Assembly (NCBI GenBank): GCA_021734945.1
Contig: JAIPIA010000001.1
Span: forward strand, 90,243 to 154,242
Direction: 5' to 3'
DNA: 64,000 bases
Source of the DNA: Minisyncoccota bacterium
GTDB taxonomy: Bacteria > Patescibacteriota > Minisyncoccia > Phycocordibacterales > CAIZLB01
Under the pieces are notes generated by a model. It saw only the letters and a list, made by a program, of their open reading frames with translations. It searched no databases and was not told the DNA's origin. Position numbers and translations under genes: made by a program. Shown here piece by piece: positions 4,189-40,603 of this stretch. Every line of letters begins with the position of its first letter. The first letter of the stretch is position 1.

Positions 4189-4209
4189 AAGGTTTGCCTG
4201 TCCTATTTT

Positions 4210-6210: not shown

Positions 6211-6285
6211 GTAAGCTAGGTGAGAATCATACATAAAAGCAGAGTGATATTTACAGAATACTTTTGATTCGCTAAAATAAATTAC

Positions 6286-6660
6286 ATGCAAAAATATAAA
6301 AACACGTTTTGGGTTACAACAGTCATTATCTTTTTAATGGAAGGACTTCTTCCTGCGTTTACGTCTCAAAGTCAGATGGCACTCGATGGCATTACACACC
6401 TTGGTTATCCTGTTTATTTTAGTGGTATGCTAGCTGGATTCAAATTCCTCGGTGCTTGTGCACTTATTATTCCAAGAGTGTCAGCTCGAATAAAAGAATG
6501 GGCATACGCAGGTTTTGGTATAGATTTTATCTCAGCATTTATTAGTATCTGGGTAGTAGATGGATTTGTACCTCTACTTATTGGTCCAGCAATCTTCATG
6601 GTAATCCTCGTACTCTCATACAAATCATATCGAAAGATTTCAAGAACATCTCAAGCTTAG
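6286..6660 (+). CDS. DoxX-like family membrane protein
   Basis: 124 aa, about 4 TM helices, sequence pattern typical of DoxX_2 small membrane proteins. Confidence 0.55.
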   Translation: MQKYKNTFWVTTVIIFLMEGLLPAFTSQSQMALDGITHLGYPVYFSGMLAGFKFLGACALIIPRVSARIKEWAYAGFGIDFISAFISIWVVDGFVPLLIGPAIFMVILVLSYKSYRKISRTSQA

Positions 6661-6870
6661 TCTGTGTTTAGATCGACTTGTGTTTAAAAAGTTTATGATA
6701 TAATTCTGGTATTAATAATTTCGCAGCGCGTAAATAAAATATCCAAAATAAAATAGTCGCGTTACAATACATAAAATATATGGCAAATAGAGACCAAAAG
6801 AGTAATAAAGAAAAAAAGAAGCAGCCAAAAAAGAAGAAATAATTTACGAGAATAGTTTGAGCAAGAAAAA

Positions 6871-6900
6871 ACACCAGCTATAAAAGCTAGGTGTTTTTTC
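6871..6900. terminator. bidirectional rho-independent terminator between convergent genes
   Basis: AAAAAACACCAGCT-ataaa-AGCTAGGTGTTTTTTC: GC-containing stem flanked by A-run upstream and T-run downstream. Confidence 0.6.
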
Positions 6901-6923
6901 TTGCTGTACAGGCTTTTGCTAGA

Positions 6924-8213: not shown

Positions 8214-8249
8214 GTAACACTCAAATTACTACTCTGATACTACTCAAGG

Positions 8250-9473: not shown

Positions 9474-9487
9474 GCGATATTTAAATT

Positions 9488-10201
9488 TTAATCATCTTTA
9501 TGAGAACTTTTTCTTTTTATATGATTTGTTGAGTCTTCAACAATCTCTCCGTCTTTAATAACGATTATTCTATCTGCATGTTCTGCGACATCACGTTCAT
9601 GAGTAATAAGTACAACAGTACGTCCAAGAGTTTTATTGAGATGTTCAAATGTTCCAAGTACAATTTCGCCGGTCTTTGAATCAAGGTTTCCAGTAGGTTC
9701 GTCTGCCAAGATAAGACTTGGATTGTTTACAAGAGCTCGCGCAATGGCTACACGCTGTATCTGTCCGCCAGAAAGTTGATTGGAAAGGTTGTTAAAGTGT
9801 TTAGGATCGAGCCCAGCAGATTTGAGTGCGGATGAAGCTCTCTCGACTCGCTCTGTTTCATCGACTTCTGCATATACAAGAGGAAGGGTTACATTTCGCA
9901 GTGCGCTTGTTCGAGGTAATAAGTTGAAAGATTGAAATACAAAGCCAATCTTATCTCGACGAATCTTAGCGAGCTCATCTTCATTGTACTCAGAAACACT
10001 TCGTCCATCGAGAAGGTATGTGCCAGATGTTGGGGTGTCGAGCGCCCCAAGAATATGCATGAGTGTGGATTTTCCAGAACCTGATGGTCCCATTATTGCC
10101 ACAAACTCACCATCATTAATAGTGAAGGTTAAACCCTTTAAAGCGGTAAAGGGTTCGATACCTGAAGTATATGTTTTTACGATGTTTTTTACTTCAATCA
10201 T
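9488..10201 (-). CDS. ABC transporter ATP-binding protein (MacB/LolD-like)
   Basis: 237 aa; Walker [13 protein letters not shown] signature LSGGQIQR, Walker [13 protein letters not shown]. Confidence 0.9.
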
Positions 10202-10230
10202 TGGTGTAATTATTGTCTTTTTTACGTGAA

Positions 10231-12102
10231 TTATCGTCCTCTAGCTGCACCACTTACACCACCAGCACCTCCTGTTCGGGGAACACTAAAGAGAGAGTTG
10301 GTTGTAGCCTTTGTGGTTGTAGCATTCATTATTGTTCGAGTAACTACAAATTCACCCTCAGAGAGTCCACTCAAAATTTCTATAGATGTATCATTTGATT
10401 CACCAACAGTTACGATTTTTTCAATGGGTGGGGTAGGGAGAGCTGTACCACTTTGGCTGTTTGGTCCTATTGGCCCAGTCAAAGGAGATGTTGCGAGATT
10501 TGCGCCAGTAGATGATCCTCGTCTTTTGAACTCACTCATACTCGTACTACCTGTCGTACTACTAAAAGTATTCTTTTTGATTGAAGTTTGTACCGCTGTC
10601 ATGTTTGCAACTTCTACATACTTTGTGCCATTTTTACTTTTTACTGCAGCAGTTGGGATAAGTAATACATTAGGTTTGTTTTTTGTAATAATCGTAGCAC
10701 TAACACTCATACCTGGTTTGATTCTCTCATCTGTAGTGTCAAAAGCAATCTGTGTAGTGTAACTTACGACACCTTGAGAAACAGTTCCGACAAGATCAAT
10801 ATTGGCTACTGTACCAGTAGCTGTCACATCATCGACAGCATCAAATGTGAGTAAAACAGGCTGTCCTACTTTTATGTTTGCCACATCGACTTCGTTGAGC
10901 GTAATTTCTGCAACTTTTTGTTTTGTTATAAAGACACCGACTGAATCAGAAACATTGTCACCAATTTTCACATTTAGTTTTGCCAAGATTCCATCAAATG
11001 GTGCGCGGATATTGTACTTGTCATAGTCAAGTTCCTTTTGAGCTATGTTGAGCTGCTGAGAACGAATATCAAGCGGATCTGCACCCTTGATTGTCTGGGC
11101 TAATGATTCATTTCTTTCTTTTATATTTCGGTCTGCTGCTGATATATCATTCTTAGCATTTTCAATCGCAGTTTTTGCTGACAAGAGATTACTAAGGTTA
11201 GAATTATTTTTTGAAATCCAGCTATTTATATTATTGAGGGCAGTCGTTGCTTGACTTGATATCTGACTGTTGGCACTGTTTCTTATAAATTCTACTGCAA
11301 GACTTGAATTTTTTAAGGACTCACTCAGTTTTGATGTAAGAGAATATGTTTTTAATAGTAATGTTTCAGTAGTGTTTGTCGAATTTGACCTTGCTGTAAG
11401 GCGATATTCTGATTGGAGGTCCTTGTAGTCATTTTGAGCCACATCGAAAAGTGTACCAGCACTATTTCGGTATGTTTGTGCTGTGCTTGAAAGTGTCGAG
11501 ACACTCGTATCGTTTAAAAAACCATCTTTTGCATAAAAAATATCGTTTGTACCTAATATAATAGAAGGTAAATCAACGAAACTACTAGATACTGCAGTAA
11601 GCCCATCTTCGTATGCTTTTGCAAGAGCGACCTCTGCTTTTACTTTTGACTGTTGTGCGTCTTGGAGCGAGTTTTGTGCTTGAGTGAGGGTGTTTGCATC
11701 TGCGGGTTGGGTAAGTTTTTGCAAAGATAGACGCGCACTTTCTAGAGAAATAGAGACATCTCGATTATCAATCTGTGCAATAAGTTGGCCTGCTTTCATC
11801 TCTTGTCCAACTTGGGCATTTATTCGTGTGATGTTACCAGATGCTTTTGCTTTTAGATCAATTTGATTTGAAGCTGAAACTTGGCCAGTACCAACTATAG
11901 TAGTGGTAAGCTCACCAATTGTAGATCGAGAGAGTACATAACGAGTTTCACTACTCGTACCAAATAGTGCGTGATATGAGTAGTATCCACCTGTCGCAAT
12001 AACAACTACTCCGATGGTGCTTATAATCTTGTGTGTTTTTGAATAATTAAATAAAGATCTAAAGAGTTGAGCAGTGCATTTCATAATGTGTATTATACAC
12101 AC
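10231..12102 (-). CDS. HlyD/MacA-family periplasmic adaptor (membrane fusion protein), unusually long
   Basis: N-terminal TM anchor, long coiled-coil, beta-barrel/lipoyl-like region, C-terminal Gly/Arg-rich tail. Annotated start 12102 is GTG; ATG (MKCTAQ...) at 12084 is more likely. First gene of the MFP-ATPase-permease operon. Confidence 0.7.
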   Translation of the reverse strand: MCIIHIMKCTAQLFRSLFNYSKTHKIISTIGVVVIATGGYYSYHALFGTSSETRYVLSRSTIGELTTTIVGTGQVSASNQIDLKAKASGNITRINAQVGQEMKAGQLIAQIDNRDVSISLESARLSLQKLTQPADANTLTQAQNSLQDAQQSKVKAEVALAKAYEDGLTAVSSSFVDLPSIILGTNDIFYAKDGFLNDTSVSTLSSTAQTYRNSAGTLFDVAQNDYKDLQSEYRLTARSNSTNTTETLLLKTYSLTSKLSESLKNSSLAVEFIRNSANSQISSQATTALNNINSWISKNNSNLSNLLSAKTAIENAKNDISAADRNIKERNESLAQTIKGADPLDIRSQQLNIAQKELDYDKYNIRAPFDGILAKLNVKIGDNVSDSVGVFITKQKVAEITLNEVDVANIKVGQPVLLTFDAVDDVTATGTVANIDLVGTVSQGVVSYTTQIAFDTTDERIKPGMSVSATIITKNKPNVLLIPTAAVKSKNGTKYVEVANMTAVQTSIKKNTFSSTTGSTSMSEFKRRGSSTGANLATSPLTGPIGPNSQSGTALPTPPIEKIVTVGESNDTSIEILSGLSEGEFVVTRTIMNATTTKATTNSLFSVPRTGGAGGVSGAARGR

Positions 12103-12223
12103 TATAATATTAAAAAGGTGTGAAGAAAGTATGAAGATATATGTATCAACTCTGTCAAACAGATTTCCAACATCAGCACCTCTTGTTCAATAGTTAGAAA
12201 TTGATTGTGATACAATAAAATTC

Positions 12224-13417
12224 ATGTCATCCCCGTTTTCATTAACGAGCAGTGTTTATTATTTTTTAATAATGGCTTGTATATTAGTTTTGGCTCATGT
12301 GATTGCAAAAAAAAGTTCTTTTTATAATTCACTTACATCAAAAAAACACGATACATTCGAGCCAGAGTCTGTTGTAAATTCAAAACTTAAAAATAGGCAT
12401 GAGATGCTTGATGGCCTTCGAGGTTTTCTGGCATTGGGAGTTTTATTTCAGCATGCTGTCACAAACTTTGCGTATTTTAATACTGGTATTTGGAAAATAA
12501 CAGATGTACGATTTTATCGCCATGCTGGTGGGGAAGCAGTCATCTTATTTTTTATGATTACAAGTTTTTTGTATTGGTCAAAGGCTATTACGAGTAAAGG
12601 ATTCTTAGATACAAAAAGTCTGTATAAGAATAGATTCAAAAGACTTGCGCCTATGTATCTTTTCTCAGCCACAATTGTTACATTATCAGTTTTGGTACAA
12701 AATAATTTTCATATATATTCTGTAATAACTTTTATCAAGGATGTGGCGTCTTGGCTAACCTTAGGTCTGATTACGACAACATCTATTGATGGGATAAGTG
12801 TGATTCCTATAAATGCGGGTATTCACTGGACACTCCATTATGAATGGATTTTCTATTTATTATTGCCTTTTACGGCTATGGTCCTTCGTGGTGGTTATTA
12901 CAGACTTTTTGCAATACCACTTGTATCTCTAGTCTTTATGTTGAACGATCGAGGATATTGGGTAATTTTCTTATTCGGTATTGTTGCGGCATCTATCGTA
13001 CACAAATGGCCTAAAATAGATTGGATATACGGTAGTGGTACGTCAAAGAATTGGTGGGTGTCTCTAATTCCAATAATCGGGTTACTTATGATCTATGAGA
13101 TTCAGTATAAACCATATTCAATGTTGCAGTATGTTATAAGTCTATGTGTACTTCTATTGTTTATATACGGGAACAGTTTCTTTGGACTGCTCAAAACAAG
13201 GGCAGCGTTGTTTTTAGGCACAATTAGTTACAGTGTGTACTTAATGCACGGTATTATTTTATTTGTTGTGTTACACCTAGCAAATACCATTATTCCTATC
13301 AAAGACTTGGCAGCGATCCATTTTTGGGCATTAATACTTATAACAGCATTAGTAACAGTATTGTCTTCAACAATTACCTATAAGTACGTAGAACATCCAT
13401 TTTTAAAGAAAAAGTAG
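12224..13417 (+). CDS. acyltransferase family 3 (OafA-like) membrane protein
   Basis: 397 aa multi-TM; N-terminal LDGLRGFLALGVLFQH motif typical of acyltransferase_3. Confidence 0.8.
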   Translation: MSSPFSLTSSVYYFLIMACILVLAHVIAKKSSFYNSLTSKKHDTFEPESVVNSKLKNRHEMLDGLRGFLALGVLFQHAVTNFAYFNTGIWKITDVRFYRHAGGEAVILFFMITSFLYWSKAITSKGFLDTKSLYKNRFKRLAPMYLFSATIVTLSVLVQNNFHIYSVITFIKDVASWLTLGLITTTSIDGISVIPINAGIHWTLHYEWIFYLLLPFTAMVLRGGYYRLFAIPLVSLVFMLNDRGYWVIFLFGIVAASIVHKWPKIDWIYGSGTSKNWWVSLIPIIGLLMIYEIQYKPYSMLQYVISLCVLLLFIYGNSFFGLLKTRAALFLGTISYSVYLMHGIILFVVLHLANTIIPIKDLAAIHFWALILITALVTVLSSTITYKYVEHPFLKKK

Positions 13418-13572
13418 GGTATATGCCTGTTGGAGTTTTCTTTTGAGCTTATTTTTTAAGGGACAGCTGCCTAGGGCTGCTTTTTACCTAATTAGCTTAT
13501 TTATACTATTACGTGTACTATATAGTCCAAATAAGTCGAATTTAAGAAAAAAATAAAAAAATCACATATATT

Positions 13573-28703: not shown

Positions 28704-29432
28704 ATGAATTTAAAAACGATAAAAACAAAATTCACACTGTATATACAGCTTTTTGCCCTTGTGTTAGGTGTTGCGTCATTTGTTCCGCAACGTTCAGATG
28801 CTCTTTTGATACTTCTCATTATTGACCACAATAGTTGTTGGGTGAACCTTATTTGGGGGTGTGATGGTGGCGATGGAGGAGGAGGCGGTGGTGGCGGGAA
28901 TGTGACATATACATATGAGTCAGACTATCCAGGTGGAGGAAGTAGCACATCAGGTGGAGGTGCAACAGCAAGTACTGATCCAGAAGGTAAACCCATCACA
29001 AGAATGACGGATACTCGTGATTCATTAAAGGATCCATGTACTACAGGGGATACGTGTCCTGGTGATGACTTAGGTGTATTGGCTGGAAAGATATCTGTAA
29101 ATCCTGCATACGCAAGTGCTCAAACAGATACATGTCCACTTCTCTGGACTCAAGGTGGTGATGATACAAACAGTACTGTTGTATGTAATCTCGTAACAAA
29201 TGGAACATCTCAAGTGTTGCCAAAGAGTGCTTCTGGTAAGAATACATTCAATGTGCCAATTGGTAGACACGTACTTTCATGTACACGTACAACCTCAGAA
29301 ACTGTAACTAAGTATGGTACAAAGGAGGGTGAGACCACTAAGACTGCTGTTGATTCTCAGACGAATACCTGGTCTAGTACCGAAGAGCACAATATCCGAT
29401 GCTTGGCTCGACCGAATGTAAATGAAATTTAA
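28704..29432 (+). CDS. secreted Gly-run / Cys-rich hypothetical protein
   Basis: 242 aa; signal peptide; GGDGGGGGGGGN run; 10 Cys in mature part; followed by terminator. Confidence 0.55.
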   Translation: MNLKTIKTKFTLYIQLFALVLGVASFVPQRSDALLILLIIDHNSCWVNLIWGCDGGDGGGGGGGGNVTYTYESDYPGGGSSTSGGGATASTDPEGKPITRMTDTRDSLKDPCTTGDTCPGDDLGVLAGKISVNPAYASAQTDTCPLLWTQGGDDTNSTVVCNLVTNGTSQVLPKSASGKNTFNVPIGRHVLSCTRTTSETVTKYGTKEGETTKTAVDSQTNTWSSTEEHNIRCLARPNVNEI

Positions 29433-29590: not shown

Positions 29591-29662
29591 TCCGTGGTAG
29601 CTCAGCGGTAGAGCAATCGACTGTTAATCGATTGGTCGTAGGTTCGATCCCTACCCACGGAG
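29591..29662 (+). tRNA. tRNA-Asn (anticodon GTT)
   Basis: manual fold: acceptor TCCGTGG/CCACGGA, D-stem GCTC/GAGC, anticodon stem ATCGA/TCGAT with loop CTGTTAA, T-stem GTAGG/CCTAC with loop TTCGATC, discriminator G; CCA not encoded. Confidence 0.85.
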
Positions 29663-31327
29663 CAAGTTAGGACAGACCGACGCAAAAACGTCGGTTTTTC
29701 CTTTGTCTACATCATAATTTCTAGGTTCGAACTGTGGGTTTTTGAGTTTTGCTTCTTTGAGGCCTTGAATGAGTATATCCATCCATTTTGTGTTGATAAT
29801 ACTCACTTTTTCTTCATCCCATATTAGGTTCGAACCAAAACGTGAAAGAACCTCTCTTTTGGAGTTTATATTGTCAGATTGCATAATATCCACAAACTCT
29901 TTTGTGAGGTCAGCAATGTTGATTGCTGTGTCAAACCAGCTAGCATCAACTTTCCTTCTCGAACTTGATAAGATAGTTTTGTTTAATTCCTCAAGTGACA
30001 CTTTTCCATCAGCTGGAGATAGTGCTCCATCGGCCATCATTTCGATAATCTTCTTTTTTCGTTTTTCAGCTGTCTCAACTTCGTCTTTTGCATGAGTTGT
30101 CATTGCTTGCTGTAGCTCTATATCTTTATCCTTTAATTCGTGTAGATACTTTTTACTCCACTCGACAAGACTTGGGGATAGTTGTACGTTTTCTTTTGCA
30201 TAATCAACTATGTGTCCCGTTAGTTTATTCTCACTGATGTATTTAGTCTTTAGGTAGCTTTTTCTTCTTGCAACATTGTAGTAATAAACGTATTCAAGAT
30301 ATGTAGGCTTATCTATCTCCATGATCAATTTTCCACAATCAGGACAATTTGTCTTATTTGAATATGCAAACTTTTTCTTACAATCACAAATAACCTGGAA
30401 CTTAATGTCTGGTCCTATAAAATCACCGTTAGGGGCCTTAATAAAACCGGCAAAAGTGGTTACATGTGTCTTTGTCTTTGGGAGGTTTCTGTCCGAAAGC
30501 ATTCTTAAGATCTTGTTGTGCTGTGCTTCTGTTATCACTCTCGGTAAGCTTGCGTTTAGCTCATAACGCTGCCCATTCTGATAAAAGAAACCAGCGTATA
30601 TAGGGTCTTTTAGCATCGTATGAACTCTTGAGATGGCCATAAGAGCTCCACCAATTCTTTTATGTTTTGGAGTGGTTAGTTTTAATTCTTCACGTACGTA
30701 TCGTGCCAATCTATTTGCAGACCAATTACCAGTAAGGAACATGTGAAAAATCCTTTCAACTAGCGGGTATTTGTCTTTATCGACTAGCCACTTTCTATTT
30801 CCTTTCTCTTCGGTCTTATCATTGATAAAACCGATAGCAGCGACTCCATGAGGGTAACCCTTTAATGCTTTAGTCTTTTGTCCATTTTTTACAAAGGCAC
30901 TTTTATCGTCACTATCTCTTTTTGAAAAAAGGAACTCGAGTCCTAAAGTCATTTTGTCGATAGATGTATTGTAGTAAGTTCTTGTAGGTGTTTTAACACA
31001 AAGCAGTTTACCTCTATCCATTGCATCTATAACTCTTGCTCCATCAATCGCATTACGTGCGAGACGGTTCGGATGTATAGCTAAAATTGCATTGATCTCG
31101 CCTTTGTTTATTTTTGAAATAAGGCCGTCGAAAATCTGTCGACCCACCTTAAAAGCACTTTTCTCTTCCTTCAAGTAAAGACAAACATTCAGGTCCATTC
31201 TCACTGAGAAATCAGCAAGCTCACGTTCTTGAGTCTCGATTGACTGCACCTGCTTATCTTCGGTATCACTTGATTTTCTACAATATGATCCAAAGCGAAG
31301 TTCTTTTTCATTGATATTGTTGTTCAT
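29651..31327 (-). CDS. large serine recombinase (resolvase/invertase catalytic domain, recombinase domain and zinc-ribbon)
   Basis: 558 aa; N-terminal YCRKSSDTEDKQVQSIETQ (catalytic Ser region), recombinase zinc beta-ribbon CDCKKK...CPDCGK; last 12 nt of CDS overlap tRNA-Asn 3' end. Confidence 0.85.
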   Translation of the reverse strand: MNNNINEKELRFGSYCRKSSDTEDKQVQSIETQERELADFSVRMDLNVCLYLKEEKSAFKVGRQIFDGLISKINKGEINAILAIHPNRLARNAIDGARVIDAMDRGKLLCVKTPTRTYYNTSIDKMTLGLEFLFSKRDSDDKSAFVKNGQKTKALKGYPHGVAAIGFINDKTEEKGNRKWLVDKDKYPLVERIFHMFLTGNWSANRLARYVREELKLTTPKHKRIGGALMAISRVHTMLKDPIYAGFFYQNGQRYELNASLPRVITEAQHNKILRMLSDRNLPKTKTHVTTFAGFIKAPNGDFIGPDIKFQVICDCKKKFAYSNKTNCPDCGKLIMEIDKPTYLEYVYYYNVARRKSYLKTKYISENKLTGHIVDYAKENVQLSPSLVEWSKKYLHELKDKDIELQQAMTTHAKDEVETAEKRKKKIIEMMADGALSPADGKVSLEELNKTILSSSRRKVDASWFDTAINIADLTKEFVDIMQSDNINSKREVLSRFGSNLIWDEEKVSIINTKWMDILIQGLKEAKLKNPQFEPRNYDVDKGKTDVFASVCPNLLRG

Positions 31328-32026
31328 TTTTTTGTTAATTTTAGCACGCGCCGGGATCTTTTACCTCTGATCGATAGTAAAAGTTATCCTTATATGACAA
31401 CACATCCGGGGCTTCATCACGATGTTTTCTCAAGACCCTTGATGAAGATCAGATTGATACGACTCACATCAGACGGCTGGGCAAGAGATCCCGGAGAGAA
31501 CTTGTTTTCCCAGCTTTCGCATGTGCACCTTATCAACCCTTATTTGTTTTGTAGAGCGAAGTTGTTTAACCAGATGCTCTAAATCAGCTGGTGTGGATGT
31601 GTATTTGTTCTACGCTTATGAGCTTCGGCAAGCAAGGTCAATAAGAACAAGCCAATCTGTTGTAGATCGTTTTGATCCAAGAGGTTTGACTTATCTTCGC
31701 CGATTTCTAGGCGGAGAGCCTCTTTTAAATCTTCGATTGCTTTAGTGCTCAAAGTTTTCATACTTTTGAGCCGGTTTCGTCCCAAGAACCGGCCATTCAC
31801 GGGCTAGGTTGAATGACTGGTTTTTAAGACCAAACACGTCTAGCCCATAGTATGAGTCTACGAAATAGCACTCAAAACTCCGAGATCAATATCCAAAATT
31901 ATCTTTATTTAACAACGTATTTTTTATGTGTATTGACACCACTTGCATAAAACAAGAAATACTATCTCTTTCTCTACCAATAAAAATAAGCTAGAATGTA
32001 ATTACAACTAAATAAGCCGACCTAAC

Positions 32027-32165
32027 CCATCGAGAGAAATCTCGGTGGTATGGTCAAAAGTCCAGTAACGATCAAAGAACCCATTATGTGGGGTTGTCGT
32101 TACTGGCCATGCAGGGAAACTTGCATGGAGGCCGCAAGGTCTCACTCACGTAGTGGGCTTTTTGG
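32027..32165. ncRNA. candidate structured RNA element (four consecutive hairpins, two GNRA tetraloops), function unknown
   Basis: CCATCGAGA-GAAA-TCTCGGTGG; CCAGTAACGA...(nested AACCC/GGGTT)...TCGTTACTGG 10-bp perfect stem; CCATGCA-gggaaact-TGCATGG; GAGGCC-GCAA-GGTCTC. Lies within the 720-bp non-coding region and directly upstream of a membrane-protein gene. Confidence 0.3.
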
Positions 32166-32172
32166 TTGCCAA

Positions 32173-32511
32173 ATTATGAAAAAGATAATAGGCATTTTGA
32201 AGAAAGATAAAATAGGGAGACTAGATTACATAATTGCTCTAGGCACATTTCTTGTGCTGGAAGTAGTCATTTTCAGCTTCATCTTCTTGCTTGTCGATCA
32301 CATCAGTAACGACACATGGTTATTTATTTTCGGTACTTTGCTTATTACATCTCTAGGTACTCTTGCTTGGATAAATTCAAAGAGGATGCGAGACGCTGGA
32401 AGGAATACTAAGGAGCTTTTTTACTACTTTGTCATCCCTTTATTCTTTGCTGCCCATAGTATTTTCCTTATCTTTTTAACCAGCAAAGATGCACATCTAC
32501 GACAAAAATAA
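32173..32511 (+). CDS. small 3-TM membrane protein (island-encoded)
   Basis: ORF track gives 32050..32511, but the N-terminal 41 aa overlap the structured non-coding element; ATG at 32173 (MKKIIGIL...) followed by hydrophobic helices is the likely start. Confidence 0.45.
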   Translation: MMKKIIGILKKDKIGRLDYIIALGTFLVLEVVIFSFIFLLVDHISNDTWLFIFGTLLITSLGTLAWINSKRMRDAGRNTKELFYYFVIPLFFAAHSIFLIFLTSKDAHLRQK

Positions 32512-32592
32512 AAATCTAAAGGCAATTTTGGACTTCAAAGACGATAAACCTATTTTGACCTTTAACCCTAAATCGTGGGTCAATAAATTAAG

Positions 32593-32823
32593 GTGGAAGT
32601 TGAGGGTAATACTAAAAAAACTACTGCCATGATTACAGCAGTATATGTTCTAGCTATCACAGTCCTTTGCTTTCAGATCTTGGTAGTACTTTTCGTTATC
32701 TTATCCCTATACAACCTTATTAAGGTTTACGTAAAGACCAAAGAGAAAGAATACCTAGCTGTAATTATATTGGTACTCGGAATTATAGGACTTTGTCTTA
32801 TTTTCCCAGATTTGAGGCCTTAA
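32593..32823 (+). CDS. small 2-TM membrane protein
   Basis: 76 aa, two hydrophobic helices; overlaps 3' end of convergent HTH gene by 26 nt. Confidence 0.35.
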   Translation: MEVEGNTKKTTAMITAVYVLAITVLCFQILVVLFVILSLYNLIKVYVKTKEKEYLAVIILVLGIIGLCLIFPDLRP

Positions 32824-33217
32824 CCCAGCCATTACTTTTTGCCATTTTATCAATACGTTCCTGGAGTTCATCATCGCTTAAACCCTCAAAGCCTGTCCGC
32901 ATAGGTTCTGGAGTCTCAACACGTACTCGGTTAGTGTATTCGCTCGGGTAGCGTCTCTCAAGCCACCAGGCGGCCGCTTGCCAGGTCTTTTTACTAGCTT
33001 CTTTAATTATCTTTATATGCTCCATCTTGTACTCGATCTCTTTTTGCCTCATCTGTTCTGAGAAATCTGAGTCTCGTTTCCAAAAAGAAAGAGTGTCTTC
33101 GCTAATACCAGCAAGAGCAGAAGCGTCCCGCTGGCTAGCGCCATGACTGATAGCGTCTAGGATGATCTTAATGGTTTTTGGGGTAGCTTTTGTTTTACCT
33201 TTAAGTATTTGCGTCAT
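32798..33217 (-). CDS. phage-type helix-turn-helix protein (terminase-small-subunit-like / phBC6A51-type HTH)
   Basis: 139 aa; HGASQRDASALAGISEDTLSFWKR HTH and AAAWWLERRYPSEY motif typical of this phage HTH family. Confidence 0.55.
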   Translation of the reverse strand: MTQILKGKTKATPKTIKIILDAISHGASQRDASALAGISEDTLSFWKRDSDFSEQMRQKEIEYKMEHIKIIKEASKKTWQAAAWWLERRYPSEYTNRVRVETPEPMRTGFEGLSDDELQERIDKMAKSNGWVKASNLGK

Positions 33218-33254: not shown

Positions 33255-36200
33255 CTATTTTATATTGAGACTTTCCCACGCAGAGATGATTTGTTGCATT
33301 CTGGCTCCTGCAAGTGGCATTGATGCAAAACGAATTCTGATCACGCTGCGAATAAGTTCAATTGCTGTTCGTGCATCTCTTTCAAAGGTCAAAGCATCAA
33401 GAACGGTCATAATCAGACCTTCACGCTCCTTATCGGTAACCGGCTGCTGCCATAGTAAAAACATGAAGTCAGCTAACACACCAACGACTGATCTAAGCTC
33501 CATTTTTACACCTTTAAGCGTGGCCAAGACTTCTTTGAATGGACTTTGGTTTTCCCATTGTGCTTGCCTTGCTGCCTCAATCAGAGTAGTGCTTTCAAGA
33601 GTAACGTGCTGATATCTGCGAAGAACCAGCTTGATGACTGCATCCCAGTATTCTGAACTCGAGATCTTCTTGTCGATAAGAAAGTGCATCAAAATTGCTT
33701 GCGTCCAAACGCCGTTCACTTTGAAGTCATCGTTCTTTGCATACATTCTAGTGGCCAAGTCTTCAGCGTACAACGAGCACTCGTTTTCTTTTGCGATAAG
33801 TATTGTTTCAATTGCATACTTTCCGAGCACTTTTTCCATCTCTTCAAACTGTTGAGTCTTCGGCAATGTTTTGCATGGTGTTAGAGTACAGTTTTCACGT
33901 ATCCATTTTTTCAGAGACTCAAGTGCTTCCACTTCGGTCGCAGCTTGTTCAGGAGTTTTTTCGTCTCGAATAAAGCTACCATCCATTTTTCCTAAAGTAG
34001 TAGATCCTTTTGAGCCCATCCCTTTTCTTTCTGAAATTGCCTCGTTCAGAGTATCTATGGTTGATTGTGTTACAAGAACTTTCTTGAATTTATCTTTGAA
34101 CATTTCAAGCAAGCCAAGTTGAGATAGAGTGAGTAGGGATGTAATGTCTATGGCTATAGTGTCGTTTGTTTTGATTGAGTCGAGGGCGACTTGACGCTCT
34201 TCAAGGGTGCCAACGCAAGACCTTATACCTACGCTTGCTGAAAGGCCATACCATACATCAACAATGTTCTTGTTAATTACACTTGCGAAAGCACCTACCG
34301 TGAGTTTCATGTCAATATAAAGTTTCTCTGCTTGAGAGACATATTCACTGTGATTTGAGACAACCTGCAAAACTTTATCGAGACTCTCTTTTGTCTTTTC
34401 CTCAGAGCTTACATCTACTGAAAAGCGTTCAAGAGACTTTTGTTCGGAAAATCGTTCCGGCATCAGTCGCATAGACTCATGAAGTGCATGCACGTATTTG
34501 TTTTTGATCTCAGTGATTTTAACCACAATTTTACTGATGGCCCCTTCAGACACAACAACATCATCATTAACCGATCTGCCCAAAAGCTTTTCACCAATTC
34601 CAGAAGAAACACCTATTTCATTCAAAGCCATGCTGAGATCTTTTCGGTCTTCAAGTAGGTAGCATGTGATCTGATCAGCGTCGTTTTTCGTGTATACAGC
34701 ACTAGATATGACTGCAGTTTTTGGGATCTCAAGTAGTTTCTCAAGTTTATGGTCTTGCGCCAAAAAGATAGTCATATACTTGGCATGTGCTTCGCCGTCA
34801 TCGAAGTACTTCCGTCTCAACTGATAGGCGGCTTCGAGTGATTTTTCTACCTTATTCCTTTCAGCGTATAGCTGGGCCAACTGGAACCCCGGGTTTATAG
34901 GGAGTTGGGTTATATCAATATCTTCATCGAGAAACTTATCAAGCTTTTCAAACTCATCAAGTCGAAACCAGTGTGTAGCTAGCCGAGTTTTTATTTCCAG
35001 GTCGTCTGGATGAGATAATAAGTATTTTTCTGCAGCAGCAGAAGCAGCAGACAGATCTCCGATGTTCTCGAGAATAGATAGCTCAATCTGCAACAGAAAC
35101 AAACCCTTGTTTTCGTCTGGTAGACGCTTAAACAAGCTTAGTGCTTTATCAACCTCGTTGGCTCTGTAGTACGAATAGAAAAGATTATCTAGGTGAGGTG
35201 ACGGAACTCTGGGGTCAATTATCTTTTCATACAAAGGCCATGACTGCGCGTATTTTTGCATGTTATACAAGTCGTCTGCCAAATTGATGACAATGTGAGC
35301 AGGGGTCATGTCAGTAATATATCCGTAGGCCTCATCAAGTAGATTGCCCGCCGCTTCCTTGTTACCAGCAAACCTTTCGGTACGGCTTGCGGCAATTAAA
35401 TTCTCGATATTCGTTGGATCAAACGATCTAAGTTTATCGACGATTTTTTTTGCTTTCTCATAATTTTTCTCCTTGATATAAACATGAACAAGCATGCGTT
35501 CTTCCTCGGATCGTAATTCAGGCGGGAGGTCGTCGCTGAACGATTTGATCAGTGTCTCCCGTGCCTCTACTAGGTTATTTTCATCAAAATAGATACCAGC
35601 AAGAACATATGCGGCTTCTGGAACCTCTTTTTTACCTACCACAGTCTTGAGTATCTCAATGGCCTGCTTTCTCTCTCCCTTTGAGTAGAGCATGAACGCC
35701 TGCTGTTTCAACATTGCCGCATCTTCAGGCTGGTAGCGCACCGCGCTGGCCATATCAGCATTAGCCTTATCCATTTCACCTAGTAGCTTATAAGCTGTTG
35801 CTCGATTGGCGTACCAAGAGGGACGATAGCTTATACTTTCAGAATTAGAAAGACTGTCTATGGCTTCCGAAAGTAATTGAACAGCTTTTTCTATTTTTTC
35901 CTTGTCTTCTGGGATAAGTTGCATATTGTTTGCGACTTCATGCTTCTGCATAAAAGTCTCAAGGATCGTGGATGCAAGATTTGCTTGAATGTCAGGGTTC
36001 TTCTTTCTGATTTTTATAGAGTCTTCCATTGCAATCTCAAGCCACTTTATAGATGATGCGAGATCACCGCGTTCACGTGCTGCATGCGCAATGGTAAACG
36101 CCACATCTTCTGACTTTCGAAACTCTGCTGGTATATCCTTCAGTATATCTTCAAGCGCTTGAGTCTTTGGGGAGCAGTTTATCAGAATGCCGATTGCTCG

Positions 36201-37532
36201 TGTGCTCGCTGGGTTCTTGTCCAAGACTTTTCTAATGTATGTCTTACACTCTTCTGTCTGATCGAGCATGAGATGACCCAAAGCTCTGTTACAAAGTGAT
36301 TTTTCATCTTCGGGATTGTATTGGTGAGCTTGTATAAAAAGTGACCCTGCCTCTTTTTCTCGATGTAGAGATGCTAATGCGGCGGCCTTGTTCGTTAGTA
36401 TTCGAAACTTAGAGATGTCGTTTGCACTGCTCCAGATCCGCTTCTCCAGACCCTCAAGAAAGTCCAGAGCTTCTTTCGGCTTCATATTGTTGATCAAATC
36501 TCTTCCGTGATCGATCTCAGCGGCATGTTCACTCGCGATTGCAGTAGTGTCAAAAACCATCTGAGCTATTTCCTTTTTTTCTGTTGTGTTAGCGGCAACA
36601 GACTCATTTATGAGAGCAAGACCGTCACCAACCTTTTTTTCAATGTTGCCGAGCTTTTCCGTAAAAGCATCAGAAAGAGAAGGATCGACGTTCGAAGAGG
36701 CTAATGCCGGGTAGTATTTTGAGGCAACATTTCCAAAGTTCCCAAGTTTTTCGAGTATGTCATCCCAAGAGAAGACGTGAACGGAAAACATTCCCTTTGT
36801 TGCGTGCTCCATTGAGATCTTCAGTGCCGCTTGTTGTAGCGACGTGTCTCTTTTACCAGTGTATGCAATAACGAGTTCTGTAAGAGGAGGGTTGAATTTT
36901 TTTGCTTCATCGACAATATCTTGAATATCGCTCACTGATAAAGCGTCAGCAGTTTCATTGCTTGTCGCATCCTTCTTCTTGCACTGTATTGCTCCAAGTT
37001 TTTGTGTCTCTTTAACTTTACCTAAGATGTCTATTCCGTTCTGTCTCTGTCCTGAACGACCATATCTCACTAAGTTGTGATCGTTCCAAATCTCTTGCCA
37101 TAAATCAGCAGAAAGTCTTTCAAATTTCTCCCATTCTCTTGGAGGAGGGACTTGCCACTGGGCAATATCAACAGGACTCGAAGATGTAGACTTTGGCTCA
37201 TTCCCGATAGAGCTGTCTATAAGTTTTTGCAGGCTTAAAATGAAATCGTTCCAGGTCATTTCGCCTTTGTACCAAAGAATACAGATGTCGGTTCTGTGCC
37301 GGAGGACGCGCATGAAGGTTTGCCATGTGAAGCCTTTCGCCTTGAGCTGACTTTTCAGGTTATCCCAGAGGTATTTCGGCAGTTTGTTGCCTGTCCAGAC
37401 GATAGAAGCATCGTCGCTGCTTTCAGGGGAAGACTGCTTCATAGATTGCATCAACGCTTTTAGGTCCAAAGGTTCAGGTGGAGTATTTATTTTCATACCC
37501 CCAGTATATGGGGTATAAAAGTAAAATACCAT
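33255..37532 (-). CDS. 1425-aa multidomain protein: N-terminal Mrr-like PD-(D/E)xK restriction-endonuclease-fold domain, long TPR array, C-terminal PIN-like(?) domain
   Basis: aa about 134-262 match the Mrr_cat pattern (FE.L..LW...GRSGQ.QNGIDI...IQCK...ELVIAYTG, FSWDDIL); aa about 350-1000 tetratricopeptide-like helical repeats; C-terminal DTIAIDITSLL plus later acidic residues suggest PIN-like fold (weak); no Walker A found. Confidence 0.8.
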   Translation of the reverse strand: MVFYFYTPYTGGMKINTPPEPLDLKALMQSMKQSSPESSDDASIVWTGNKLPKYLWDNLKSQLKAKGFTWQTFMRVLRHRTDICILWYKGEMTWNDFILSLQKLIDSSIGNEPKSTSSSPVDIAQWQVPPPREWEKFERLSADLWQEIWNDHNLVRYGRSGQRQNGIDILGKVKETQKLGAIQCKKKDATSNETADALSVSDIQDIVDEAKKFNPPLTELVIAYTGKRDTSLQQAALKISMEHATKGMFSVHVFSWDDILEKLGNFGNVASKYYPALASSNVDPSLSDAFTEKLGNIEKKVGDGLALINESVAANTTEKKEIAQMVFDTTAIASEHAAEIDHGRDLINNMKPKEALDFLEGLEKRIWSSANDISKFRILTNKAAALASLHREKEAGSLFIQAHQYNPEDEKSLCNRALGHLMLDQTEECKTYIRKVLDKNPASTRAIGILINCSPKTQALEDILKDIPAEFRKSEDVAFTIAHAARERGDLASSIKWLEIAMEDSIKIRKKNPDIQANLASTILETFMQKHEVANNMQLIPEDKEKIEKAVQLLSEAIDSLSNSESISYRPSWYANRATAYKLLGEMDKANADMASAVRYQPEDAAMLKQQAFMLYSKGERKQAIEILKTVVGKKEVPEAAYVLAGIYFDENNLVEARETLIKSFSDDLPPELRSEEERMLVHVYIKEKNYEKAKKIVDKLRSFDPTNIENLIAASRTERFAGNKEAAGNLLDEAYGYITDMTPAHIVINLADDLYNMQKYAQSWPLYEKIIDPRVPSPHLDNLFYSYYRANEVDKALSLFKRLPDENKGLFLLQIELSILENIGDLSAASAAAEKYLLSHPDDLEIKTRLATHWFRLDEFEKLDKFLDEDIDITQLPINPGFQLAQLYAERNKVEKSLEAAYQLRRKYFDDGEAHAKYMTIFLAQDHKLEKLLEIPKTAVISSAVYTKNDADQITCYLLEDRKDLSMALNEIGVSSGIGEKLLGRSVNDDVVVSEGAISKIVVKITEIKNKYVHALHESMRLMPERFSEQKSLERFSVDVSSEEKTKESLDKVLQVVSNHSEYVSQAEKLYIDMKLTVGAFASVINKNIVDVWYGLSASVGIRSCVGTLEERQVALDSIKTNDTIAIDITSLLTLSQLGLLEMFKDKFKKVLVTQSTIDTLNEAISERKGMGSKGSTTLGKMDGSFIRDEKTPEQAATEVEALESLKKWIRENCTLTPCKTLPKTQQFEEMEKVLGKYAIETILIAKENECSLYAEDLATRMYAKNDDFKVNGVWTQAILMHFLIDKKISSSEYWDAVIKLVLRRYQHVTLESTTLIEAARQAQWENQSPFKEVLATLKGVKMELRSVVGVLADFMFLLWQQPVTDKEREGLIMTVLDALTFERDARTAIELIRSVIRIRFASMPLAGARMQQIISAWESLNIK

Positions 37533-37603: not shown

Positions 37604-38197
37604 GTGTTTATGGCGACTACAACCCCAACAATATGGACTTTCATTGATGCGTCACCTTTTTGGTCGGCTTTTTTTGCACAGCTTCTTGCTACTCTTATTG
37701 TTGTTATTATCGGTTCTGTTGTAATTCCACCAATACTAAAGTGGAGGAAAAGAACAAAATTAAAGTTTTTCAAAACCCATACCTTTTTTAGTAAGAACTT
37801 TGAATTAACAGAGTCATCTGACGGAGAGTATGAGGCCACACTTCATTTATCTATAAAAAACTTTGGATCTGAAACGGTAGAGCGCTTTTATTGGGAGATG
37901 TATTTCCCAAAAGAGATGTCTGTTGAATTGGTTACCAAACCTCCTTACCCTCGTTACTTCACCACAAATCATCAGAAAGGAAATAAATACTTGAGACATT
38001 ATGGTTATGTAGAGTTACCGCTCTTTTCACTTGATGAAGTTGATTTTGTATACGAAATAAAAGTTAAAATTAAAGAAAAGAAAAAGATCAAGATATTCTA
38101 TTTCTTCAACAGCGATAATGGCGTATCGCCAGCATGGACTTGGCTTGCTATTACTCTTAAGAAACATCATTGGCTAAAGTTTTTGGTTCTTGAATAA
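37604..38197 (+). CDS. hypothetical membrane-anchored protein
   Basis: 197 aa; N-terminal hydrophobic helix, Lys-rich C-terminal part; last gene before candidate attR. Confidence 0.45.
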   Translation: MFMATTTPTIWTFIDASPFWSAFFAQLLATLIVVIIGSVVIPPILKWRKRTKLKFFKTHTFFSKNFELTESSDGEYEATLHLSIKNFGSETVERFYWEMYFPKEMSVELVTKPPYPRYFTTNHQKGNKYLRHYGYVELPLFSLDEVDFVYEIKVKIKEKKKIKIFYFFNSDNGVSPAWTWLAITLKKHHWLKFLVLE

Positions 38198-38336: not shown

Positions 38337-38352
38337 GATCCATACCCACGGA
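38337..38352. repeat. candidate attR: 16-nt direct repeat of tRNA-Asn 3' end (15/16 identical)
   Basis: GATCCATACCCACGGA vs tRNA 29646..29661 GATCCCTACCCACGGA; a second weaker copy CCCACGGAGATAAGTT at 39540..39555 resembles tRNA end plus its downstream flank. Confidence 0.45.
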
Positions 38353-38466
38353 ACTCGTCTGTACATAATAGAAATAATGTTATATAAATGTAATGTTCTT
38401 TTGCGTCAGTAAACAATCAATAGGCTTAAAGGAGAGCCTGGTACGATTTGTACCGAATATGTCAGT

Positions 38467-38685
38467 ATGCATTTCAATACAAACGAAATCATGATTCCAC
38501 TCACTTCGTGGACTGCGTTCGACAGAGGAGAAATTATTGAAGCCAATTCGCCAGATGGTATTACTCTTAAGGTGGGAGATACAATCTGGTGGGTATGTGC
38601 TCAGTATGATGGTACGTGTAGCGTTGTGGAAGCAAAATCGACTGTGCCAGGAAGTACTGTGAAGATCAAAAAACTGGCGAATTAA
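38467..38685 (+). CDS. small hypothetical protein
   Basis: 72 aa ORF in otherwise non-coding stretch; no motif. Confidence 0.3.
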   Translation: MHFNTNEIMIPLTSWTAFDRGEIIEANSPDGITLKVGDTIWWVCAQYDGTCSVVEAKSTVPGSTVKIKKLAN

Positions 38686-38889
38686 AAAGCTACCAACGAA
38701 AGCAGGAGGTCACCTCTACTCGTTGGTGGCTTTTCTGTTTTATATAAAATACTATATAAGGTGATTTTTTTACCCTAAAACTTTTCTGAACGAAAATATT
38801 TTTTGTATTTTTATTTTGACACCTAATAATACATGTGTTAATTTATTTCCAGACTGACAATCCCGTCAGCCCGAACAAAGGAGGTTCTT

Positions 38890-39462
38890 TTGAAACCTGA
38901 TATTCTCTGCAGTGTTTTGGCAGGACTTCTCAGTGTCCTCGCCTTCGGCATCTATAATTGGCAAACTTTCCAAGGACAAGTCAGCCCTAACATCACTTCG
39001 TGGGCAGTGTGGAGCTTTATGACGCTCCTCAACTTCACTTCCTATAAAGCAATGACAAAGGATGGCTGGAAAAGTCTTCTTCCGACCATTAGTGGTATCC
39101 AGTGCATTCTCACCTTTGTGCTCGCTCTCTTCCAAGGGCAACTCAAAGTAATTGGAATGAACGACGGTATCGTCCTCGTGGTCGGCATCACGGCAAGTTT
39201 GTTGTGGTGGAAGCTTAAGTCTCCAACAGTCACGAACATGATGCTCCAGCTTGGCATCACCATAGGTTTCATCCCGACGTTTCAAAGTGTCTGGATGCGA
39301 CCTCAAAGTGAAATCGCCCTTTGCTGGTTTCTGTGGACTGTCTCGTTTGTGTTCCAAACTACCGTGGTCATTCAGCGGTGGAAAGAACAAAAGCGAGACC
39401 TTGTCTATCCAATCAATTGCCTTTGGCTTCATCTCGCTGTGGCACTGCTGGCTCTTCGGTAA
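38890..39462 (+). CDS. hypothetical multi-TM membrane protein, GC-rich gene
   Basis: 190 aa; TTG start 8 nt after a strong RBS AAAGGAGG; 5-6 TM helices; noticeably higher GC than genome; antisense 218-aa ORF rejected. Confidence 0.55.
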   Translation: MKPDILCSVLAGLLSVLAFGIYNWQTFQGQVSPNITSWAVWSFMTLLNFTSYKAMTKDGWKSLLPTISGIQCILTFVLALFQGQLKVIGMNDGIVLVVGITASLLWWKLKSPTVTNMMLQLGITIGFIPTFQSVWMRPQSEIALCWFLWTVSFVFQTTVVIQRWKEQKRDLVYPINCLWLHLAVALLALR

Positions 39463-39649
39463 TAACCCACTCAACAGGATACCCCTGCTTGCAGTGGGTT
39501 TTCCTTTTATATAAGTAAACAAGTTCTAATATCCTCAAGCCCACGGAGATAAGTTGTCAGACAATTTGTGAGGTGTATCATTAAGTCAGATTTAAGCGTT
39601 TAAAACCTGCGGAGTTAACATCAACCCACAATACAGAAAGGAGAACTTA

Positions 39650-40561
39650 ATGAAAATCTTTTATGATAGCACTTACGATTTAGAAGGTTACGACACCACA
39701 AGGAAAGCTAAATGGATCTATGATTCTCTGTGCCAAAACCCAATCAGAAATGTCGAGGTCATAAGTCCTCCATTGCTGGATGAGACGCTCTTAAAAAGAG
39801 TTCATTGTCAAAGGTATATAAACACAGTGAGGTCAGGATCACCAATCAGACTTGCTGAATCGCAAGGTCTTCGTTGGTCACCTGATCTTTGGAGATCTGT
39901 AACTGCTTCCACTATGGGCGTAGTAGCTGCTGCACAACAATCATTGAATGATGGTGTTTCTGGTTCATTATCGAGTGGATTGCATCATGCACAGTACGCG
40001 CGTGGAGCAGGATACTGCACGTTCAATGGTCTTGTGGTAGCAGCAGAGCATCTCCATCAAGAAGGAGTTGAACATATTCTCATTCTTGATTTGGATGCCC
40101 ATTTTGGAGGAGGTACAAACTCACTTCTTGTCAAAAGGGGTTATATCCATCATGTTGATGTATCAGTCAGCAGGTTTGATAGGTATCCTGTGTGTCCTTG
40201 TCAGGCTGGCACGAATCCTCGTCCTTTCAGAACAGCTTTGTTGATTACTAATTCCGATGAGTATCTTCGATCAATTGAAATCTGCCTTGAAAAGATTGAG
40301 GAATTAAACATCAAGTTTGGCGCTTGCTTATACAACGCTGGTGTGGATCCACATGAAAATTGTATGGTAGGAGGAATTGATGGAATCACGACTGATACCC
40401 TGCACTGTCGCGATCAGATGGTTTTTGAATGGTGTAAGAGACGGGGAGTACCTATTTCATTTGCTTTGGCTGGCGGTTATATAGGCACACAGCTGTCAGT
40501 GGAGACGCTTGTTGGCTTGCATCGAGGAACGATTGAAGCGGCAGCTAGGACTATTCGTTGA
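39650..40561 (+). CDS. histone deacetylase (HDAC)/acetoin-utilisation AcuC/acetylpolyamine amidohydrolase family protein
   Basis: 303 aa; HDAC motifs GLHHAQYARGAGYCTFNGL and ILILDLDAHFGGGT (variant of D.D.HHGNG); strong RBS AGGAGA; GC-rich. Confidence 0.8.
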   Translation: MKIFYDSTYDLEGYDTTRKAKWIYDSLCQNPIRNVEVISPPLLDETLLKRVHCQRYINTVRSGSPIRLAESQGLRWSPDLWRSVTASTMGVVAAAQQSLNDGVSGSLSSGLHHAQYARGAGYCTFNGLVVAAEHLHQEGVEHILILDLDAHFGGGTNSLLVKRGYIHHVDVSVSRFDRYPVCPCQAGTNPRPFRTALLITNSDEYLRSIEICLEKIEELNIKFGACLYNAGVDPHENCMVGGIDGITTDTLHCRDQMVFEWCKRRGVPISFALAGGYIGTQLSVETLVGLHRGTIEAAARTIR

Positions 40562-40569
40562 GATTTTGT

Positions 40570-40603
40570 GGTGGCGCTGTCCTTAGTTGGACGGCGCCAC
40601 TTT
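40570..40603 (+). terminator. rho-independent terminator
   Basis: GTGGCGCTGTCC-ttagtt-GGACGGCGCCAC 12-bp stem (one G-U) followed by TTTT. Confidence 0.7.

Follow-up and report, generated by a model that had tools for sequence, protein, structure and literature searches.

Do two small membrane proteins and a phage-type helix-turn-helix (HTH) protein, encoded beside a giant nuclease gene, form a multi-gene module with it, or do they belong to a unit of their own? The question is raised by positions 32173-33217 of the window (the whole 64,000-nt stretch of DNA analysed here), which comes from Candidatus Pacebacteria in the candidate phyla radiation (CPR; Patescibacteria). We propose that this block, extended 5' to position 31992, would be the conserved backbone of an integrative island at a tRNA-Asn gene, and that it would comprise two convergent units. 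The first would consist of its own promoter and a LOOT RNA, followed after 32 nt by overlapping genes for a DUF805-like protein with three transmembrane (3-TM) segments, a 47-aa protein and a 2-TM protein. The second would be a gene for a full-length homologue of the phage small terminase (TerS), with an HTH and a helical core and without a large terminase (TerL) partner. A giant PIN-TPR-GreABC gene would fill a cargo slot beside the TerS-like gene, where sister islands put other defence systems. The division into backbone and cargo is, in our judgement, very likely correct; the fuller reading, in which a LOOT-led accessory operon and a satellite-type TerS form the island backbone and the giant PIN-TPR gene is swappable cargo, is probably so.

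The flagged genes and the island around them

The small membrane genes and the phage-type DNA-binding gene picked out in an earlier note on this DNA are real as open reading frames (ORFs). Between the window and its nearest relative, L003 (related loci carry L numbers throughout), the Nei-Gojobori dN/dS came to 0.07 (3-TM gene), 0.17 (47-aa gene), 0.11 (2-TM gene) and 0.12 (HTH gene), versus 0.5-2 in off-frame controls, and all four ORFs are therefore coding and under purifying selection. The 3-TM protein was described correctly: its gene, the first after LOOT, lies at 32176-32511 (+) and encodes 111 aa with hydrophobic segments at residues 22-40, 48-66 and 85-103 (Kyte-Doolittle). It is a divergent DUF805 member, scoring 21.7 bits against DUF805 (PF05656), under the Pfam cutoff of 25.7; four of the five members of its family match the domain (best E-value 4.8e-8) and share the motif INxKRxxDxGR. 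The protein is a near-orphan, with 4 relatives among 1.8 billion representatives in an exhaustive search and a single cluster in a word-indexed one. A basic ORF of 47 aa (32489-32632, +), not mentioned in the earlier note and 81% identical in amino acids to its L003 copy, overlaps the 3-TM gene by 23 nt and is joined to the 2-TM gene by an ATGA stop/start overlap. The 2-TM protein, likewise as described, is encoded at 32629-32823 (+) and has 64 aa counted from the ATG at 32629, with hydrophobic segments at residues 7-25 and 42-60; in the 12-codon extension of this gene to a GTG, the changes relative to L003 are all non-synonymous. The terminase-small-subunit-like HTH protein (139 aa, 32798-33217, -) bears AAAWWLERRYPSEY as stated and is identical to NCBI K9M11_00610.

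The geometry of the block had to be revised. The HTH gene does share the minus strand with the giant gene, as the earlier note had it; it starts, however, 37 nt downstream of the giant gene's stop codon rather than upstream of the gene. The membrane genes, also placed upstream, are encoded on the other strand and are convergent with the HTH gene, and the 3' ends overlap by 26 nt.

We show the limits of a predicted 8.7-kb island, from ~29646 to ~38355, bounded by tRNA-Asn and a repeat of the tRNA 3' end. The tRNA-Asn gene (GTT anticodon; 29591-29663, +; called by ARAGORN, 72.4 bits with the Rfam tRNA model) is the putative integration target, and its 3' end (29646-29663) is the left copy of the attachment (att) repeat. 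The right copy, a displaced tRNA-Asn 3' end at 38337-38365 (+; repeat D2), contains GATCCATACCCACGGA, which is identical to 29646-29663 at 16 of 18 positions, and the chance expectation for this repeat was estimated at ~3e-4 for the region. GC content is 0.40-0.44 within the island versus ~0.34 in the flanks. At the left edge lies a gene for a large serine recombinase of 558 aa (29651-31327, -; Pfam Resolvase 1.2e-11 and Recombinase 1.1e-9; PHROG 95 integrase 4e-48), the predicted island integrase, which would integrate and excise the island at tRNA-Asn. The coding region ends within the 3' end of the tRNA gene, and the same overlap of the integrase end with a tRNA or transfer-messenger RNA (tmRNA) gene is found in L003, L006-L009, L015, L018, L026 and L031. 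From left to right, the integrase is followed by a small ORF and LOOT, then by the three small ORFs and the HTH gene, and lastly by the giant gene and a 197-aa ORF. The LOOT RNA, the large serine recombinase and the tRNA-Asn with its 3'-end repeat had all gone unnoticed in the earlier note. A second repeat, D3 (29597 versus 38618, 71%), was judged to be due to chance.

The family of the HTH protein has 93 homologues, mostly from CPR bacteria, and a scan of one genome per species yielded 79 loci. The 13 closest loci (45-82% identity; 14 when the window is counted) all come from CPR metagenome-assembled genomes (MAGs). Ten of these 14 have a LOOT no more than 800 nt from the HTH gene; in eight of the 10 the LOOT unit converges on the HTH gene, with stop codons ~30 nt apart or less, and in the other two it follows downstream in tandem. 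In most of the 13 closest loci a large serine recombinase is encoded 1.3-7 kb past the HTH gene on the same strand, and the recombinases of HTH islands end on tRNA-Glu, Asn, Val, Pro or tmRNA genes. Homology between the DNA of the window and that of L003 is limited to 31878-33208 (78.7%), covering the promoter, LOOT, the three small ORFs and the HTH gene, that is, from ~140 nt 5' of LOOT to the HTH start codon; integrase subfamily and cargo differ between the two. The same compact layout is shared by Saccharibacteria, Parcubacteria, Paceibacteria and Nomurabacteria, where integrase subfamilies and target tRNAs differ. By these comparisons we show that the flagged genes and LOOT form a discrete, selected and horizontally exchanged block, which pairs with different recombinases, tRNA targets and defence cargo.

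Two further ORFs complete the island. Upstream of the integrase is a small ORF of 73 aa from a GTG, probably 60 aa from the ATG at 31761 (31579-31800, -), with a homologue at the same position in L009 (39% identity, E 1e-4); small ORFs also stand immediately before the integrase in L003, L005, L007 and L015, and this one is a possible candidate for an excision or regulatory factor. At the other end, the 197-aa ORF (37604-38197, +; from the ORF list) has one N-terminal TM segment, no family match in Pfam, PHROG, PADLOC or NCBIfam, and no homologue in any related locus. PADLOC, NCBIfam and PHROGs returned nothing useful for the small membrane ORFs or for the 73-aa and 197-aa ORFs.

Some features lie just outside these limits. 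GC content of 0.39-0.45 persists for 2 kb past the right att copy (38366-40600), which may be either host DNA or an earlier insertion, and this stretch carries a 5-TM DUF6962-like ORF (38890-39462) and a histone-deacetylase-family gene (39650-40561; 2.4e-30). To the left of tRNA-Asn, an ORF of 242 aa (28704-29432) has an N-terminal hydrophobic segment and a run of ~12 glycines, with no Pfam match on record. Two independent Logan contigs of SRR12088351 (L001 and L298) break inside tRNA-Asn (29609-29626), which they reach from opposite sides, the island and the left flank; the breaks fit a polymorphic site or, equally, a tRNA shared between organisms of the metagenome, and the right junction is assembled through.

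Among the related loci, three have details of their own. In L004, a group I intron (13210-13493; Rfam 80.8 bits) falls exactly at the end of the integrase gene, where ARAGORN calls no tRNA, and the island may have inserted at an intron-containing tRNA gene; intron-containing tRNA-Asn and tRNA-Asp are reported for Patescibacteria in the available text of one source (PMC13011429). A Berkelbacteria MAG (L026) carries two tandem modules beside tRNA-Pro (6097-9760 and 10016-13497), each with HTH, 250-aa 1-TM, 168-aa Cys-rich and serine recombinase genes, which looks like tandem islands at one att site. L010 looks like an island remnant, with a truncated HTH homologue (4028-4392; 81% identity over the N-terminal half, and named 'Site-specific recombinase' by NCBI) whose ORF runs into tRNA-Ala, and with neither LOOT nor integrase.

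The TerS-family protein and its possible role

The HTH protein matches the TerS family PHROG 4102 (5.2e-22) and, more weakly, three further TerS PHROGs, and some of its homologues carry PF20901. Among relatives from prophages and IMG/VR contigs (29-43% identity), an ORF of 380-520 aa comes directly after the TerS gene in 50 of 57 evaluable loci, and nine out of 10 such ORFs sampled were TerL by Pfam, as exemplified by a Roizmanbacteria prophage (L016). The island proteins align end to end with these phage proteins through the HTH, an acidic FSE helix and a WQA(A/S)AWWLER(K/R)Y helix. An N-terminal HTH is seen in the HTH_28 match (1.2e-5), and an AlphaFold2 model (predicted local distance difference test, pLDDT, 80) has a three-helix HTH (residues 13-24, 29-36 and 40-47) and then a helical core of long helices at 50-77 and 79-89. 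At the window the gene does not stand directly upstream of TerL, and there is no TerL in the island. By homology, then, the HTH protein is assigned to the TerS family as a member lacking an adjacent TerL. Close relatives (>45% identity) were not found among IMG/VR contigs, and none of the 80 viral TerS loci from IMG/VR contains LOOT.

The earlier note offered two roles for this protein, namely a regulator or a remnant of a phage packaging module. The protein may still be a regulator. Its descent from the packaging family holds; the idea of a remnant does not, because the gene is full-length, conserved and under selection in islands without a large terminase, and on these grounds we take the TerS-like gene to be a working backbone gene and not a decaying one. 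In the role we favour, the TerS-like protein would recognise island DNA and recruit the large terminase of a helper CPR phage, so that the island would spread as a phage satellite. Two hallmarks of PICI, SaPI and VEIME satellites are found here: an integrase with att sites delimiting a discrete island, and a packaging-specificity gene unaccompanied by virion structural genes, with no matches in the island to capsid, portal, tail or TerL families (Pfam, PHROG). Satellites that combine a serine recombinase with a TerS homologue have been described, including marine elements (PMC9618062). We nevertheless put forward TerS-mediated hijacking tentatively, as a proposal that comes close to being an even matter without quite reaching it.

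The main rival for this protein is exaptation, whereby a TerS-like protein would serve the island as a DNA-binding factor, either as recombination directionality factor or as regulator of the cargo or of the LOOT operon, without any part in packaging. Such a role would suit the co-occurrence of the gene with a large serine recombinase in islands without TerL, its constant position at the border of the cargo slot, and the tail-to-tail arrangement with the LOOT unit, which is kept with stops within ~30 nt in eight of 10 loci; the missing replication module, which goes against classical satellite biology, would suit it as well. Retention of the whole TerS architecture, including the WWLERR helix, and end-to-end alignment with phage proteins encoded upstream of TerL are harder to reconcile with exaptation. 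Moreover, the separate small ORF directly upstream of the integrase is better placed as a directionality factor, and cargo varies among islands while the HTH protein stays >60% identical. Taken together, an exapted role is unlikely, and recruitment of a helper terminase remains our preferred proposal.

LOOT RNA ahead of small membrane genes

LOOT occupies 32019-32143 (+) by its Rfam model (RF03000; 89.1 bits versus a gathering threshold of 46.4; model positions 1-121), and a tail with a T-run continues to ~32170. A putative promoter region precedes it at 31992-32014 (+), with the -10-like hexamer TAGAAT at 31992-31997 and the conserved box ACAACTAAATA at 32004-32014; in most of 86 loci a box ACAAYTKAATA with a preceding -10-like hexamer is found 3-10 nt before LOOT. 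Conservation also reaches beyond the 3' end of the Rfam model, where ~27 nt pair with the P3 loop in a pseudoknot-like manner (12 pairs, 96% paired, 11 of the 12 with double changes; 70 sequences, alignment A3). The structure overall beats all 500 shuffles and all slid controls, and the window copy, tail included, scores 135 bits against a covariance model built here (R1). The T-run after the tail pairs with an A-rich segment, and a terminator-like site is present at 32141-32157. By eye, the 5' box of the window seemed to pair with the T-run region; the same pairing failed in L004 and was discarded.

Further copies were collected by scanning public collections with a sequence pattern and confirming the hits with model R1, which gave 6 copies on viral and 70 on metagenome contigs. 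A same-strand ORF of at least 30 aa follows 76 of 78 LOOT copies at a median gap of 30 nt, compared with 31 of 82 in the mirror control. These ORFs encode an N-terminal hydrophobic helix in 52 cases out of 76 (68%), versus 177 of 695 (25%) among the other ORFs of the same loci (Fisher p = 2e-13), and the encoded proteins are otherwise unrelated to each other. Several of the ORFs without such a helix look nuclease-like, as judged by eye from N-terminal sequences only. In 30 of 83 LOOT loci, 8 nt or more of the 5' arm of P3 are duplicated exactly, with the duplicate ending 2-6 nt ahead of the following gene's start codon, whereas permuted controls gave a mean of 0.9 and a maximum of 4; this copy differs by locus and covaries with P3 (e.g., L004, L009, L011, L012, L014, L015, L219 and L246).

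Features of this kind belong to a leader that acts in cis and has alternative pairings, rather than to a free-standing small RNA, and we think it quite probable that LOOT acts in cis. As a 5' leader, LOOT would gate the operon for the membrane proteins, and the switch might work through competing pairings, in which the P3 loop would pair with the 3' tail and T-run, and the 3' arm of P3 with the duplicate of the 5' arm at the start codon. Because the two units stand tail to tail, antisense transcription running on into the TerS gene may be under LOOT control as well. The membrane proteins themselves would provide accessory functions to the island, such as exclusion or envelope effects, and would not be effectors of the giant nuclease.

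Alternatively, LOOT could be an independent small RNA that acts in trans and merely lies in front of unrelated genes, the small ORFs having a promoter of their own. Rfam does class it as 'Gene; sRNA', and its end, a helix plus T-run, resembles an intrinsic terminator; in the conserved structure, however, this T-run is paired with an upstream A-rich segment. The near-constant co-oriented ORF at a short distance, which exceeds the mirror control, and the covarying copy of the P3 arm next to start codons in 30 of 83 loci would likewise be unexpected for an RNA that is indifferent to its neighbours, and we regard a trans-acting LOOT as rather improbable. A type I toxin-antitoxin arrangement was ruled out, LOOT being on the sense strand upstream of the ORFs and neither antisense to them nor overlapping. 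In the literature, the discovery-paper supplement lying outside the search, we found on the function of LOOT only a listing in a figure legend of the Rfam paper and one structural comment.

On four IMG/VR contigs (L166, L167, L169 and L170), LOOT occurs together with a ~440-aa serine recombinase gene (often divergent, at 165-170 nt), a ParB-like/methylase gene, a distant HTH gene and a TerL-like gene; LOOT is therefore also carried by phage-like elements. This combination of LOOT, recombinase, distant HTH and TerL-like gene points to a phage origin of the parts, and one might accordingly see the island as a decayed prophage whose TerS-like and LOOT-led genes are remains that no longer contribute to mobility. 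We consider this very improbable, given that all four ORFs are under purifying selection, that the same compact architecture is found across Saccharibacteria, Parcubacteria, Paceibacteria and Nomurabacteria, and that neither other phage structural genes nor pseudogenes were found (Pfam, PHROG).

The cargo slot, the overall reading and known systems

The giant gene (33255-37532, -; 1425 aa) encodes an Mrr-like N-terminus, TPR repeats and a PIN-TPR-GreABC domain. In Pfam it matches PF20698 at 3e-25 and several TPR families, and shows weaker matches to GreA_GreB (9.7e-4, below the cutoff, for the GreA/B C-terminal-like part) and Mrr_cat_2 (6.9e-3); the PIN-TPR-GreABC domain and the TPR repeats that mark the family are thus both present.

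Co-occurrence was examined in both directions. BLAST at 1e-3 found no homologue of the giant gene in the 13 closest HTH loci, where the slot holds IetA/IetS (L004; 1e-85 and 1e-62), AbiLi (L011; 3e-50), an Avs1b-like NACHT protein (L012), AriA/Old-type ATPases (L003 and L014), Type II (L007, L014 and L015) or Type III (L009) restriction-modification, a Type I-like restriction-modification system called from ORF sizes and start sequences alone (L018), a Radical SAM protein (L010), or, in an HTH island without LOOT (L006), a 1275-aa TPR protein (6070-9897) with a weak PIN-TPR-GreABC match (1.3e-9). From the other side, the giant gene has 26 homologues, and none of the eight loci examined (23-59% identity) contains a homologue of the HTH, 3-TM or 2-TM gene, as judged by blastp and tblastn for the four closest and by Pfam gene lists for the other four. 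The neighbours of these homologues are a tyrosine integrase with HTH_17, housekeeping genes, a Prim-Pol with resolvases, an FtsK-type integrative and conjugative element (ICE) or type I restriction-modification, and full-length homologues stand alone in these unrelated contexts. Because these eight loci lack the HTH, 3-TM and 2-TM homologues, the best reading of the giant PIN-TPR gene is that of a swappable, stand-alone cargo gene.

The claim of a multi-gene module with which we began is thus upheld in part: there is a conserved module, and the giant nuclease gene drops out of it, since none of eight giant loci has the other genes and HTH islands carry other cargo. The earlier note had itself named homologues lacking these neighbours as the outcome that would speak against it, and that is the outcome in all eight loci. 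Nor does co-occurrence support its suggestion that the membrane proteins are abortive-infection partners of the nuclease. A single abortive-infection system made of membrane effectors or sensors, an HTH regulator and the giant Mrr-TPR-PIN protein is scarcely credible and already largely refuted by the co-occurrence test, for while this model can draw on the adjacency of the genes (no terminator is predicted in the 37 nt that separate the giant gene from the co-directional HTH gene), on the distant PIN-TPR-GreABC gene beside the HTH homologue of L006 and on the LOOT and 1-TM ORF that follow the closest giant homologue (L082), it has against it the eight giant loci just described, unrelated cargo in at least 11 HTH islands, the retention in L003 of the LOOT/small-ORF/HTH block (79% DNA identity) with an AriA-like ATPase in place of the giant gene, the opposite strand of the membrane genes and the absence of any PADLOC match for them.

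Several observations weigh against an island backbone of LOOT-led operon and satellite-type TerS with exchangeable cargo. The 1275-aa protein of L006 is a distant relative of the giant gene missed by BLAST at 1e-3, so the PIN-TPR-GreABC family is present in two of 14 HTH islands (the window and L006) and recurs beside the HTH gene. In L082, whose giant homologue is the closest (59% identity), a degenerate LOOT (4644-4769; 47.4 bits versus the threshold of 46.4) begins 54 nt past the stop codon and is followed by a 71-aa 1-TM ORF, with no HTH gene between giant homologue and LOOT. Taken with L006, some preferential association of the giant family with this island setting may exist. The 3-TM, 47-aa and 2-TM genes were seen in the window and L003 only. 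LOOT itself is found more widely than the islands and is not specific to them: an HTH-family gene lies downstream in five of 30 copies with enough flank, and a divergent serine recombinase within 600 nt in six of 33. The copy of the P3 arm is absent from the LOOT loci of the window, L003 and L005, and the proposed leader role in the window therefore rests on position, promoter and tail. No ORF of the island has a domain of a replication module (primase/helicase, origin), and no helper phage has been identified, unlike for the classic satellites. The top fold matches of the HTH protein model in the PDB, the Sf6 small terminase (gp1) and 2ao9, have weak statistics (E 0.2, TM-score 0.35-0.4), and a sequence-profile search of the PDB reached Sf6 TerS at E 0.45 only; the predicted fold agrees with the TerS assignment without proving it. 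Finally, excision, packaging and RNA function are all inferred from sequence.

A large part of bacterial diversity belongs to the CPR, yet little has been described of the mobile elements and phage parasites of these bacteria or of their acquisition of defence genes. A compact, recognisable backbone in which a serine recombinase at a tRNA is combined with a TerS-like gene and a LOOT unit could serve as a handle for finding CPR defence islands, and new defence genes in their cargo slot, and it suggests that the hijacking of helper phages may exist in this group. LOOT gains a concrete and testable context in its promoter, the class of genes downstream and its alternative pairings, and the annotation of the giant gene's neighbourhood is corrected, so that the gene can be studied as a stand-alone system. 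It would be a larger claim, and one we hold to be doubtful, that these are the first phage-satellite-like elements recognised in CPR/Patescibacteria and that LOOT is a cis switch, riboswitch-like or controlled by a protein, gating mostly membrane or secreted accessory genes.

Each class of component is known on its own, that is, satellites with TerS, cargo islands targeting tRNAs, the LOOT motif and PF20698 proteins. The literature, apart from the supplement of the LOOT discovery paper, which was not covered, yielded no description of this backbone in CPR bacteria or of the context and extended structure of LOOT. The giant gene resembles TPR-GreAB-C-PIN conflict systems (PF20698) in having the family-defining PIN domain and TPR repeats in a single large gene, as in its homologues, and differs from them in its weak GreA/B-C match and its extra Mrr-like N-terminal domain.

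Satellites with a small terminase of their own (SaPI and PICI, and the marine VEIMEs and PLEs with serine recombinases; PMC9618062) are likewise small integrative elements that carry an integrase at one edge and accessory or defence cargo, and whose TerS homologue is akin to that of phages from the same host group; capsid genes and a large terminase are absent. The island in the window departs from them in having no recognisable replication module, repressor or capsid-remodelling genes, in its CPR host, in the overlap of the recombinase end with the tRNA and in the convergence of a LOOT unit on TerS, and it is known here from sequence alone. With tycheposon-like elements and defence islands marked by serine recombinases (bioRxiv 10.1101/2020.12.28.424599; PMC13552941), it shares integration at a tRNA 3' end, a modular backbone and exchangeable defence cargo, whereas a backbone of TerS-like gene, LOOT and small ORFs is not described for them as far as the available text of these sources goes.

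As for the LOOT RNA motif (RF03000; Weinberg et al. 2017, PMC5737381), all 121 positions of the model are covered by the copy in the window, at 89 bits. Rfam types it as a small RNA of unknown function from metagenomes, whereas here it behaves as a promoter-proximal leader, and the conserved unit exceeds the Rfam model on both sides, with the 5' box on one and the 3' tail and T-run on the other, while about a third of the copies have the duplicate of the P3 arm.

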